Virus genome (UHGV): UHGV-1440302
Source: a virus
DNA: 8,700 nucleotides
Strand: one strand, 5' to 3'
The translations under genes were made by a program, and so were the position numbers. Below the pieces are notes generated by a model. The model worked only from the letters and a program-made list of their open reading frames with translations, was not told the origin of the DNA and did no database searches. Of the stretch, positions 2,222 through 8,700 are shown piece by piece (the stretch's first letter is position 1; each line of letters opens with the position of its first letter).

Positions 2222-2240
2222 AGAGTTTAACTCGTCAAAT

Positions 2241-2287
2241 ACTAAATCGTGGGGCCCCGCTGGCCTGCCAGTGGGTTCCGATTTAGT
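2241..2287 (+). other. Nested GC-rich stem-loop in the gI-gIV intergenic region
   Basis: Outer 9-bp perfect inverted repeat actaaatcg (2241-2249) / cgatttagt (2279-2287) encloses an inner stem cccgctgg (2256-2263) / ccagtggg (2268-2275) with one G-T pair and loop cctg. No T-tract follows, so it is not a classical intrinsic terminator. Confidence 0.5.
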
Positions 2288-2373
2288 GATTGACGACACT
2301 CAGGAAAGATACCCTTGATGAGGGTGATGGTTCACGCAGTGGGCCATCGCCCTGCTAAGCGGGTTTTTCCTGA

Positions 2374-3606
<1,233 letters not shown>

Positions 3607-3662
3607 GTGCCGTCTGAGGTGGGATTATCAGGACGCGGCATCTCAATTTAGCTACTACAACG

Positions 3663-3760
3663 TCAGTGCGCATAATGTGACACGCGTTATGTTGAAAAGG
3701 CCGCTGCGATACTCTCCACCGCAGCGGCCTTTTTATACATAACGTCATTGTGCGCACTGA
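3663..3760 (+). other. Candidate XerCD-dependent attP: two inverted dif-like sites that can fold into a forked hairpin in the + ssDNA
   Basis: Site 1 (+): AGTGCGCATAA (3665-3675), 11-nt spacer TGTGACACGCG, TTATGTTGAAA (3687-3697); compare recalled E. coli dif GGTGCGCATAA-TGTATA-TTATGTTAAAT. Site 2 inverted (+ 3732-3758, read on - strand): AGTGCGCACAA-TGACG-TTATGTATAAA. Arms are mutually complementary (3665-3675 with 3748-3758, 10 of 11 pairs; 3687-3697 with 3732-3742, 9 of 11) with unequal unpaired centres, capped by a 10-bp GC stem. Confidence 0.7.
3695..3736. terminator. Bidirectional intrinsic-terminator-like hairpin (also the tip of the attP hairpin)
   Basis: Perfect 10-bp stem ggccgctgcg (3699-3708) / cgcagcggcc (3720-3729), 11-nt loop, AAAA on the 5' side and TTTTTA on the 3' side; lies about 90 bp after the gIV stop and downstream of the minus-strand gene cluster. 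Confidence 0.65.
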
Positions 3761-3763
3761 ACC

Positions 3764-3919
3764 TTAAAGGATTTCAGTGTCCTTACTTAGTTTGTTGTGT
3801 ATGGTCATCACCAACGGTGGGACAAGCGTTATCAGGCTGAATATTGTCATGCCTGTGATGCTGCCAACAACAAAATGCTTTATCAGCAGGTCAAGAATTA
3901 AGTCACTGGTTGTCTGCAT
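3764..3919 (-). CDS. Hypothetical small hydrophobic protein, 51 aa (MQTTSDLILDLLIKHFVVGSITGMTIFSLITLVPPLVMTIHNKLSKDTEIL)
   Basis: Hand-translated minus-strand ORF, below the ORF-track length cut-off; ATG at 3919-3917 immediately after repeat copy 1, stop TAA at 3766-3764; one predicted transmembrane-like segment; only a weak SD (GAAG). Confidence 0.25.
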   Translation of the reverse strand: MQTTSDLILDLLIKHFVVGSITGMTIFSLITLVPPLVMTIHNKLSKDTEIL

Positions 3920-3971
3920 ATTGCTTCTAGCAATCTTCGTATCGATAGGTAACTATAATGTTATTTTTTTG
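3918..3971. repeat. Direct repeat copy 1 (~53 bp) covering the stop codon and 3' flank of a minus-strand small ORF
   Basis: atattgcttctagcaatcttcgtatcgataggtaactataatgttatttttttg matches 4446-4502 with about 3 substitutions and 1 indel; contains palindrome TATCGATA and a TATAAT hexamer (+ strand). Confidence 0.85.
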
Positions 3972-4149
3972 TTGCATCCGTCTTTGCAAATTTCCTGTAG
4001 TCATCTTCTGTTATAGACTCCAGTCCTTTTGCGATTATCCATTCTAAAACTTTGGTATCTTTTACTGGTATTGCCAGTGTTGTTACCACTTTTACAGTTT
4101 CTTTCTCTACCTTTCTCCATAAAACATCGTTTATGTGCTTTGTTGGCAT
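3961..4149 (-). CDS. Small DNA-binding-like protein, divergent paralog of the two upstream ribbon-helix-helix-like ORFs (62 aa from ATG; 82 aa if GTG at 4209 is used)
   Basis: ATG at 4149-4147 preceded by GAGGT with 7-nt spacing; C-terminal segment VKDTKVLEWIIAKGL parallels LKPSEIVNHLIDNYL and VTWSEVVHFMIKNYL of the neighbours; ends KK-stop inside repeat copy 1. The alternative GTG start at 4209 overlaps the upstream ORF's stop by 4 nt. Confidence 0.5.
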   Translation of the reverse strand: MPTKHINDVLWRKVEKETVKVVTTLAIPVKDTKVLEWIIAKGLESITEDDYRKFAKTDATKK

Positions 4150-4205
4150 TTTTACTACCTCTGTTTGATCTTTGTCAGCCCGTCTGTTCGATGCCGGGAA
4201 AGGAA

Positions 4206-4418
4206 TCACATTGCTCTTTTTTTCTTAAGTTCTTCTCTGCTTATTAAATCTTTCACGGCCTCATCTAAGTAATTGTCTATTAAGTGATTAACTATTTCAG
4301 ATGGTTTTAGTATCTCACCGGTCTTATTGCCGATTTCTAGCACTCTTCGTTTTAGCTCCAATTTTCTGTCTTCGTTGATTCTTACAGTTGTGTCTCCGCG
4401 CTTTGTTTCTTTTTTCAT
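4206..4418 (-). CDS. Ribbon-helix-helix (CopG/Arc/MetJ-like) small DNA-binding protein, putative repressor, 70 aa
   Basis: ATG at 4418-4416 preceded by GAGGT with 8-nt spacing. TTVRINEDRKLELKRRVLEIGNKTGEILKPSEIVNHLIDNYL has the strand-helix-helix pattern of CopG/Mnt-type RHH proteins (compare recalled CopG ...LTITLSESVLENLEKMAREMGLSKSAMISVALENY). About 50% identical to ORF 4490-4672 over the helix region. Confidence 0.6.
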   Translation of the reverse strand: MKKETKRGDTTVRINEDRKLELKRRVLEIGNKTGEILKPSEIVNHLIDNYLDEAVKDLISREELKKKRAM

Positions 4419-4445
4419 CACAGTTTACCTCTATGTCCTGTCAAT

Positions 4446-4502
4446 ATATTGCTTCTTAGGAATCTTCGTATCGATAGGTAACTACTATGTTATTTTTTTT
4501 GG
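4446..4502. repeat. Direct repeat copy 2 (~53 bp) covering the stop codon and 3' flank of a minus-strand small ORF
   Basis: atattgcttcttaggaatcttcgtatcgataggtaactactatgttattttttttgg; see copy 1. The ORF 4490-4672 ends KK-stop at the equivalent position within the repeat. Confidence 0.85.
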
Positions 4503-4672
4503 TTTCTTTGGTGGATCATGTCTTGTTTTGCGTCGTTTAAGTAGTTTTTTATCATAAAGTGTACAACTTCCGACCATGTAACTATTTGCCCTGTTTTTTG
4601 GCTTATCTCAAGGGCTATCCTAGTAATATCCAGATATGTTGATTCTGTAATTGCTATTGCCTTTCTTTTCAT
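4490..4672 (-). CDS. Ribbon-helix-helix-like small DNA-binding protein, candidate phage repressor divergently transcribed from the Rep gene, 60 aa
   Basis: ATG at 4672-4670 preceded by GGAG with 8-nt spacing. IAITESTYLDITRIALEISQKTGQIVTWSEVVHFMIKNYL is paralogous to ORF 4206-4418 (shared KTG...SE.V...I.NYL...A..D). Its upstream region is the palindrome-rich divergent region shared with the Rep gene, an arrangement like rstR/rstA in CTXphi. Confidence 0.6.
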   Translation of the reverse strand: MKRKAIAITESTYLDITRIALEISQKTGQIVTWSEVVHFMIKNYLNDAKQDMIHQRNQKK

Positions 4673-4684
4673 TCGCTCATCTCC

Positions 4685-6787
<2,103 letters not shown>

Positions 6788-7877: not shown

Positions 7878-8700
7878 TTGATTCGTCTTATTTTTCCGCT
7901 TCTGTTTTTGTTCTTTTCTTCGCTTTCTTTTGCTGAGGGGAAAAAAAATCCGGATGAATTTGTTGAGTGTTTTGGCCGTTTATCCTGCAGGACAGCTTAT
8001 TCAGACGCGGGGACATCGATTAAATTAGCCAGGGGAGCAGGTCATGTTTATTGTGGCTGGTCCAGTGTTGATGCATGTTCCGGAATAATTCATTATTGCG
8101 GCGACAATCCTTCAAAGGTTTCTGCCGCACCTTCTACCGTTGGGAATTTTGTTTCTGCCAAATGGCATGCATATAAAGTCTGGGATTTAGACAAGCAAGA
8201 GTGGCAAACCTGCGCCCTTGCTTTTCAGGGAGGTGAGGGTGATTTGACACCTGAATATAATAAGCCGGTTACCGAAGAAAATTGTCTTTCCCGTCCGGTA
8301 ATTAAGGACTTTTCATATTCTCTTGGTGATGTTGTCTGGGTTGATACGGGTAACGGGCAGGAATCTCAGTCCCTGGAAATTAATGGCTGTCGTTATTTGA
8401 TTGATTTTAACGAGTGTGATGACGACGGGAATTGTATCGCTCAGAGTATGCGTTCTGTTGGCGTGGCTGTCGCCAATAAAAATCCTGACGACAATACAGG
8501 GAGTGGCTCTGGTTGTGACGACGACAATTGCGATAATACGACAGGCTCTGGCGGTTCATCCGGCAGTGGTGGCTCCGGCTCGGGTTCCGGCGGCTCATCC
8601 GGCAGTGGTGGTTCAGGTTCTGGCTCCGGTGGTTCATCCGGTAGCGGTGGTTCAGGTTCTGGCTCCGGTGGTTCATCCGGTAGCGGTGGCTCCGGCTCGG
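7878..8700 (+). CDS. gIII: Minor coat/adsorption protein pIII, N-terminal part (signal peptide, Cys-rich receptor-binding domains, start of Gly/Ser linker); 3' end beyond window
   Basis: RBS AGGAG (7866-7870), TTG start at 7878 (no in-frame ATG nearby); hydrophobic signal LIRLIFPLLFLFFSSLSFA; open frame with no stop to position 8700; multiple Cys (CFGRLSC, YCGWSSVDACSGIIHYCG, CRYLIDFNECDDDGNC); enters the GGSSGSGGSGSGS repeats at about 8544. Not in the ORF track because it has no stop in the window. Confidence 0.8.
   Translation, partial: MIRLIFPLLFLFFSSLSFAEGKKNPDEFVECFGRLSCRTAYSDAGTSIKLARGAGHVYCGWSSVDACSGIIHYCGDNPSKVSAAPSTVGNFVSAKWHAYKVWDLDKQEWQTCALAFQGGEGDLTPEYNKPVTEENCLSRPVIKDFSYSLGDVVWVDTGNGQESQSLEINGCRYLIDFNECDDDGNCIAQSMRSVGVAVANKNPDDNTGSGSGCDDDNCDNTTGSGGSSGSGGSGSGSGGSSGSGGSGSGSGGSSGSGGSGSGSGGSSGSGGSGS
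8544..8700 (+). repeat. Coding tandem repeat, 39-bp unit encoding GGSSGSGGSGSGS (pIII linker), continuing beyond the window
   Basis: About four imperfect 39-bp units in the gIII frame, matching units at 1-167. Confidence 0.9.

Follow-up and report, generated by a model that had tools for sequence, protein, structure and literature searches.

A probable Ff/IKe-type minus-strand origin in the gI-gIV spacer of an Escherichia coli filamentous prophage

The virus genome UHGV-1440302, analysed here as a stretch of 8,700 nt (the window), raises the question why a filamentous phage should carry a long and structured spacer between its genes I and IV (gI and gIV). A preliminary description had pointed to a nested hairpin in this spacer and had suggested that it acts either on the plus-strand single-stranded DNA (ssDNA) or on the mRNA. 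We have analysed the structure of the spacer, its homologues in phages and plasmids, and the content of the same position in related prophages.

The prophage and its structured gI-gIV spacer

A filamentous prophage of E. coli is represented in the window by one unit (ca. 8,439 nt), which comprises gIII-like and gVI-like genes, gI, gIV, an intergenic region of 1.1 kb, a gene for a P2 GpA-type replication endonuclease (rep, 4766-6787), and small genes. The gIII-like gene, which codes for Gly/Ser linker repeats, wraps around the window ends. The corresponding 39-nt tandem repeats occur at 1-202 and at 8505-8680, which is 8,439 nt apart, and thus the window is slightly larger than one genome unit, reflecting either circular permutation or a tandem prophage. 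In 272 of the 5,426 complete E. coli genomes, similar prophages were detected; tandem arrangements are frequent, and hipA is the neighbour of one relative. The whole window did not match any entry of the phage collection by megablast, and its pI protein is at most 35% identical to that of any phage in this collection. With pI as query, no related locus could be confirmed in GTDB genomes, and a scan of viral contigs yielded 11 relatives, several of which end at the gI stop codon. The prophage family looks like the CUS-1/YpfPhi type, which integrates at dif.

Several repeats outside of the spacer were also recorded. Just after gIV, at 3663-3760, there is a very stable forked hairpin (-42.5 kcal/mol, z = -10). 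Its arms carry half-sites that resemble dif of E. coli: AGTGCGCATAATGT corresponds to the XerC side (13 of 13 positions for GTGCGCATAATGT), TTATGTTGAAA corresponds to the XerD arm in 9 of 11 positions, and inverted copies are found on the other arm. At the tip of the forked structure (3695-3733), 14 bp form a perfect hairpin that resembles a terminator. By its sequence, this element looks like an attP(+) of the CTXphi/YpfPhi type for XerCD integration at dif (PMC4266046). A 43-nt direct repeat (93% identical, 3928-3970 and 4457-4499, 529 nt apart) in the intergenic region upstream of rep could be regulatory or origin-related. Directly upstream of rep, an inverted repeat (TGTTAACAGTTTAACA / TGTTAACCTGTTAACA, 4687-4702 / 4739-4754) and a direct repeat (CTGTTAACA(G/C)TTTAACA) are candidates for an operator or for the plus-strand origin.

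The start codon of gIV is most plausibly ATG 2399, which has AGGTGAGG upstream; the mechanical ORF start is TTG 2383. With the start at ATG 2399, the spacer that follows the gI stop codon (2219-2221) has a length of 177 nt. It had rightly been called unusually long (ca. 176 bp), as f1, where gIV starts at 4220, has no comparable gI-gIV spacer.

The nested hairpin itself could be confirmed in the sequence. Its outer stem consists of 9 perfect pairs, ACTAAATCG (2241-2249) being the exact reverse complement of CGATTTAGT (2279-2287), the loop of the inner stem is CCTG (2264-2267), and no T-tract is found 3′ of 2287. The inner stem of 8 bp, formed by CCCGCTGG (2256-2263) and CCAGTGGG (2268-2275), is placed and paired as described, but is not strictly perfect, having 7 Watson-Crick pairs and one G2259·T2272 wobble. 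While the coordinates of the hairpin hold, they cover only part of a larger element. The outer stem extends further (2232-2238 / 2290-2296), so that the complete hairpin, termed [B] below, spans 2232-2296, and a second long hairpin, termed [C], follows at 2300-2373 with a 15-bp core (2321-2335 / 2339-2353).

The structure of the spacer exceeds chance, both as ssDNA and as RNA, which are the two foldings that had been proposed as a check. When folded as DNA, the hairpin at 2241-2287 has z = -3.2, with one of 200 shuffles being as good. None of 200 shuffles was as good for the full hairpin [B] (2230-2298, z = -5.2), for the region of hairpin [C] (2298-2375, z = -4.4), for the whole spacer as DNA (-36.4 kcal/mol, z = -5.7), and for the whole spacer as RNA (z = -7.1). 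A rho-independent terminator was rejected for hairpin [B] in accordance with the preliminary description: there is no T-tract after 2287, and the only call is a weak one at 2351-2363, followed by T5. The features of the region are listed in Table 1.

Table 1. Features in and around the gI-gIV spacer. Positions are those of the window.
Feature	Position	Strand	Evidence
Gene I, Zot-like assembly ATPase, 403 aa	1010-2221	+	ORF; Pfam Zot, E = 4e-9
gI-gIV spacer, 177 nt, two long hairpins	2222-2398	+	DNA and RNA folding
Putative exchangeable ssi module, probable Ff/IKe-type minus-strand origin, 141 nt	2229-2369	+	borders of plasmid match; blastn; nhmmer
Equivalent of hairpin [B]	2232-2296	+	fold z = -5.2; helices 88% and 99% paired among 18 homologues
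Previously described nested hairpin, upper part of hairpin [B]	2241-2287	+	sequence; z = -3.2
Lineage-specific tip extension of hairpin [B], GCTGG-CCTG-CCAGT	2259-2272	+	alignment
-35-like TTGACG, pairing with GTCAA 2234-2238	2290-2295	+	conservation
-10-like TACCCT, lower left arm of hairpin [C]	2310-2315	+	conservation
Core of hairpin [C], predicted primer template	2321-2353	+	32/33 identity to f1
Predicted RNA primer, ca. 18-20 nt, leftwards from opposite T2353	2334-2353	-	inferred from identity to f1 template
T-run closing the module	2364-2368	+	in most homologues
Gene IV, secretin	2399-3606	+	Pfam Secretin, E = 3e-24

Similarity to the minus-strand origins of Ff and IKe phages

Upon comparison to phages by sensitive blastn, the spacer was found to match the Erwinia phages PEar (E = 4e-21), IKe 6334-6457 (E = 8e-18), and f1/M13 5655-5750 (E = 5e-14). 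All matches are plus/plus, and the identity to the viral strand of Ff/IKe is 75-80% over 95-124 nt. In the GenBank record of IKe, two features are annotated as 'minus-strand origin stem loop' (6333-6385 and 6410-6438), separately from the morphogenetic signal (6141-6196) and from the viral-strand origin. The match to this annotated stretch identifies the initially noted hairpin as the upper part of [B], and the second hairpin as [C], of a minus-strand origin, ori(-), of the Ff/IKe type. Hairpin [B] would thus work together with hairpin [C], which is outside of the region that had been noted. The core of hairpin [C], AGGGTGATGGTTCAC-GCA-GTGGGCCATCGCCCT, is identical to f1 in 32 of 33 positions, and the sole difference is one base in the loop.

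We conclude that the spacer very probably carries the minus-strand (complementary-strand) origin of the phage, in form of a 141-nt module (2229-2369) homologous to ori(-) of Ff/IKe. A structured protein-binding site able to act on plus-strand ssDNA had been envisaged before, but its identity as a minus-strand origin had not been recognized. In a profile search (nhmmer), the module was detected as single copy in the window (E = 2e-38). An Rfam search of the window at E <= 1 gave no relevant family, the only match being a palindromic pseudo-hit at 3666-3757. Among the 16 viral-contig loci, the pattern-scan matches L013 and L024-L027 were considered to be chance matches and were discarded.

By every testable sequence-level criterion except the typical position, the element appears to be a member of the Ff/IKe ori(-) family. 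A location in the main intergenic region, beside the packaging signal and the plus origin, is typical but not defining for this family, and the module is instead found between gI and gIV. In IKe, in f1, and in the viral contigs L017 and L022, the element is located after gIV. A further, inovirus-like contig from IMG/VR (L016, 8,687 nt, with a GpA-type Rep that is 32% identical) has a homologous hairpin [B] and a different hairpin [C] at 1208-1350 on the minus strand, just downstream of an ORF with an HTH domain that follows the Zot gene. A secretin gene was not detected in this contig by tblastn with pIV from the window or by Pfam analysis of six of its ORFs.

The module is on the plus strand, as are all identified phage genes, and in inoviruses it is the plus strand that is packaged. 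Seven G·T pairs turn into A·C mismatches on the minus strand, three G·T pairs in the core of [C] hold this stem on the plus strand only, and the core breaks up when the minus strand is folded. The structure is therefore specific for the plus strand.

Conservation was analysed in an alignment of 18 sequences. Seven of these are viral contigs and six are copies on plasmids or islands, and the others are the window, IKe, f1, PEar1, and an M13-like variant. Pairs were counted for the fold of the window. The two helices of hairpin [B] are paired in 88% and 99% of the cells, and the core of hairpin [C] in 86%, with compensatory changes; in controls, with partners slid by 1-3 columns, 31-47% are paired. 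Among the 18 homologues, 27 pairs change on both sides, and compensatory changes include CTAAATCG/CGATTTAG to CTGAATCG/CGATTCAG and GGGTGATGG/CCATCGCCC to GGTGGTTGG/CCAACCACC. Five measures were applied to the whole structure. For four of these (percentage paired, pairs changed on both sides, cells changed on both sides, and covariation score), none of 500 shuffles reached the observed value, and for the fifth, further pair types, 5 of 500 did. Conservation with compensatory changes, which had been proposed as a test, is thus present. The outer stem of [C] (2300-2314 / 2361-2373), with 48% paired, was rejected as a conserved stem.

Several bases are fixed. The -35-like hexamer is TTGACN, TTTACN, or TTGATG in all 18 sequences, with T2290, T2291, and A2293 being invariant (18 of 18). 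Invariant are also GTCAA, which pairs with TTGAC (2290-2294), the AATCG/CGATT pair, and T2315, while their neighbours covary, and A2311 is at least 90% conserved; the -10-like element keeps the pattern TAnnnT. Around the predicted start, CCCTG (2350-2354) is conserved as CCCTG, CCTTG, or CACCTG in the 18 sequences. Fixed sequence inside of covarying stems fits sequence-specific recognition by a protein. At its tip, hairpin [B] is more variable. The inner stem noted initially consists of three conserved C:G pairs and of a five-pair extension (GCTGG/CCAGT) that is restricted to some lineages. This extension occurs only in the window, p1934, p2849, v18, and pEA18_5, and is absent from f1, IKe, and PEar, where the tip is CCCC-TTTG-GGGG or similar.

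A mechanism of priming can be taken by homology from the biology of Ff phages, from which we infer priming as such, its start point, its sensitivity to rifampicin, and its dependence on RNA polymerase. Upon entry of plus-strand ssDNA into the cell, SSB would coat all but hairpins [B] and [C]. In the folded DNA, a -35-like duplex (GTCAA/TTGAC) of [B] and, within the lower stem of [C], a -10-like TACCCT would become available, and the sigma-70 RNA polymerase holoenzyme would bind to these elements of the folded plus strand. From a start opposite T2353, the enzyme would then synthesize an RNA of ca. 20 nt, leftwards and with the right arm of [C] as template, and DNA polymerase III would extend this primer to generate the replicative form. 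The primer RNA of fd/f1, as reportedly described by Geider, Beck and Schaller in 1978, is pppAGGGCGAUGG..., and we take the reverse complement of the right arm and loop of [C], AGGGCGATGGCCCACTGCGT..., to be the same apart from the loop base. The -35 and -10 boxes of f1 ori(-) are said to have been assigned by Higashitani et al. in 1997. In the window, TACCCT is placed 5 nt upstream of A2321, and A2321 is paired to T2353, the predicted start. The linear distance from the -35-like to the -10-like element is 12-15 nt, compared to 17, and the analogy to a promoter thus depends on the folded geometry.

An ordinary double-stranded sigma-70 promoter (TTGACG...TACCCT) was rejected, as its spacer has 14 nt and the promoter scan made no call. 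On the minus strand, a promoter-like sequence (GTGCCA-17-TATAAT with TG extension, 10 of 12) occurs at 2422-2450, inside of the 5′ end of gIV. It points leftwards to the origin module and may be due to chance (0.4 expected per region). The predicted primer start is located inside of a conserved 5′-CTG-3′ (2352-2354) at the 3′ foot of [C]. CTG is the trinucleotide preferred by DnaG primase, and priming by primase instead of RNA polymerase is conceivable for some family members.

Occurrence on plasmids and replacement in related prophages

In complete E. coli genomes, matches to the spacer were found in 583 records, and 573 of the 601 places are on plasmids, leaving 28 that are chromosomal. In PLSDB, 1,450 plasmids from Escherichia, Salmonella, Klebsiella, and others carry the module. 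On plasmids of 1.9-2.8 kb it occupies non-coding DNA and has the same orientation as a Rep_1 rolling-circle initiator gene, as would be expected for the location of a single-strand origin. Further copies have repA or an antirestriction gene in their vicinity, or precede a mobC-relaxase operon, and the module also occurs beside conjugative or mobilisable leading-type regions. The E. albertii plasmid pEA18_5 (2.76 kb, RepL) has a 141-nt copy (2510-2650) that is 97.9% identical to the module in the window. The sharp borders of this similarity set the limits of the presumed functional module and indicate a recent exchange between phage and plasmid. Nearly all of the ca. 1,450 plasmid copies are unannotated at the module, and we found no paper that describes them.

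Relatives with a pI protein that is 87-98% identical diverge from the window directly after the gI stop codon, which thus forms the left border of a variable slot. In seven close relatives, with a pI identity of 87-97%, the gI-gIV slot is occupied by an unrelated cassette, CCGCTCGCCGCAG...GACCGAACGTAGTGAGCGA...GAGGAAGCGGAA, which is found at 8101-8218 in L010 and just after 4709 in L031, L034, L036, and L037. The similarity to these PAS-type relatives resumes at about TCTCCNGCATTTATTGTTGACCG, after the gIV signal peptide. As a consequence of this late resumption, the signal-peptide region of gIV has to be considered part of the swapped segment. In L033 (4710-5168) and L035 (4042-4500), the PAS cassette is halved by an insertion of ca. 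280 nt, and the sequence directly after the first PAS half is unrelated to gIV.

The cassette of the relatives has a match in ColE1 at 1308-1367, on the same strand as RNA II; RNA I (645-749) is on the opposite strand. With an RNA II of ca. 555 nt, the site in ColE1 would presumably be located on the template of the lagging strand, ca. 110-170 nt beyond the origin, as expected for ssiA/n'-pas. A second match of the cassette is located directly 3′ of rep in a plasmid that looks ColE2-like in its layout (rep, then site). The cassette was found at about 2,900 places, most of which are on plasmids. Its folding is not above that of shuffles (z = 0.17). For the window element, a primosome assembly site of the phiX174/ColE1 type was rejected, as it has no match on ColE1.

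The window module and the ColE1-like cassette are mutually exclusive, with exactly one of them per genome examined. All nine family members examined have one or the other ssi type in the slot, oriented so as to be active on the plus strand. Because a structured module is replaced by a weakly folding cassette of an ssi type, it is a complementary-strand priming signal, and not an RNA structure, that the family has in common at this position. We consider this replacement to be the strongest argument for an element that acts on ssDNA. By its occurrence in the same slot and orientation, the ColE1-type cassette is presumably the functional equivalent of the window module.

On balance, we favour the view that, in this dif-integrating inovirus family of E. 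coli, the junction between gI and gIV is a natural 'ssi cloning site', where non-homologous complementary-strand origins are swapped with plasmids. These would be of the RNA-polymerase Ff type in the lineage of the window and of the PriA-primosome ColE1 type in most relatives. If true, sister phages differ in the host priming pathway that they need, and one Ff-type module is common to inoviruses, rolling-circle plasmids, and conjugative or mobilisable elements. Such a natural swap mirrors laboratory practice, as M13 with a deleted ori(-) has been a classic vector to clone ssi signals from plasmids (references in PMC7690428).

Alternative explanations and comparison with known systems

A minus-strand origin is supported by homology, strand, conservation of structure, promoter-like bases, the sso contexts on plasmids, and replacement in the slot by another ssi type. 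Alternatively, the element might act mainly in the gI-gIV mRNA, as a partial terminator or attenuator, as a site for processing or stability, or in translational control of gIV. The very strong folding of the spacer as RNA would be in line with this, as would the weak terminator-like site of 5 bp with the subsequent TTTTT (2364-2368). Also, no plus-strand promoter was called in 2100-2500, so that the gIV mRNA must read through the element. However, homologues on plasmids are found in DNA that is neither translated nor part of an operon, others occur in the intergenic region of Ff/IKe, the weakly folding cassette in the slot of the relatives represents a known ssi type, the conserved bases are promoter-like DNA motifs, and neither of the long hairpins encloses the gIV Shine-Dalgarno sequence. 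We therefore consider it very unlikely that the primary role is at the mRNA level, and the options that the preliminary description had raised in this respect (processing, stability, translational control of gIV) are unsupported as such. Since the element is inside of the gI-gIV transcript, unlike in Ff, it may have an attenuating influence on gIV as a secondary role.

Even for a minus-strand origin, it has to be asked if the phage makes use of it. The module could be a plasmid-derived passenger without a role in the phage, the working ori(-) being located elsewhere, e.g. in the large intergenic region. The nearly identical copy with sharp borders on a small E. albertii plasmid is compatible with a passenger, and so is the low number of E. 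coli chromosomal places with the window-type cassette (only 28). Ff phages, according to what Kim, Hines and Ray are said to have reported in 1981, tolerate the loss of ori(-). Nevertheless, a passenger is highly improbable given that each of the nine family members examined has one ssi type in the slot in the plus-strand-active orientation, that no second copy of either cassette type was found in the window, and that the core is intact and nearly identical to the experimentally characterised template of f1. An additional, unrecognised ori(-) might be present in the 1.1-kb intergenic region (3607-4765). Finally, a hairpin that is long, imperfect, and located on the packaged strand resembles the packaging (morphogenetic) signal of Ff, and one might also think of another protein site such as a translational operator for pV. 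We regard this as extremely unlikely, since the alignment is with [B] and [C] of IKe/f1 and not with the morphogenetic-signal hairpin of IKe, and since the module occurs on rolling-circle and conjugative plasmids, which are never packaged.

Identity as a minus-strand origin would explain the otherwise puzzling structured spacer of 177 nt and would locate the complementary-strand origin for a family of E. coli filamentous prophages that has been little studied. It would extend the Ff-type ori(-) beyond phages that use F- and N-pili, as a mobile module that is present in ca. 1,450 enterobacterial plasmids. With RNA-polymerase-type and PriA-type origins in one and the same slot, the family offers a clean system to study effects of the priming pathway on host range, establishment, and sensitivity to host factors. 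With respect to annotation, such spacers in plasmids and prophages could carry an sso/ssi label. In a search that mostly did not extend to the older subscription literature, we found no paper describing a gI-gIV position of ori(-) or a natural origin swap. The position, and the swap between RNA-polymerase and PriA origins, are of modest specialist interest; the element family itself is already known.

A related principle has been described for Frpo from the leading region of the F plasmid (Masai & Arai 1997), where the host RNA polymerase meets -35 and -10 boxes in folded ssDNA and then synthesizes a primer (PMC7690428, PMC11541004). The window element is proposed to follow this principle, but homology to Frpo was not found when the nhmmer profile of the family was compared to F 45000-70000 (best E = 0.05). 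Frpo is a single hairpin of ca. 330 nt and has also been proposed to drive gene expression, whereas there is no gene downstream on the minus strand in the window. The sso/ssi sites of small enterobacterial rolling-circle plasmids (Rep_1, RepL, 1.9-2.8 kb) represent the same homologous module in non-coding DNA, with the difference that the module in the window would serve an encapsidated phage strand.

The ssiA of ColE1, an n'-type (PriA-dependent) site, is comparable by its occurrence in the identical gI-gIV slot and in the same orientation in close relatives, but it has no sequence similarity to the window element and folds weakly. Priming at ColE1 ssiA is by the PriA primosome and DnaG, in contrast to RNA polymerase for the Ff type. 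Closest in design are the ori(-) of the Ff phages f1/M13/fd and of IKe, which share with the window element the two-hairpin layout, the -35-like duplex with TT(G/T)AC, CCCTG at the predicted start, and the T-run after [C]. The window module differs from these by the extra 5-bp stem at the tip of [B] and by its position between gI and gIV instead of the post-gIV intergenic region by the packaging signal and plus origin, and its phage has a dif-type attachment hairpin and, for replication, an endonuclease of the P2 GpA type.
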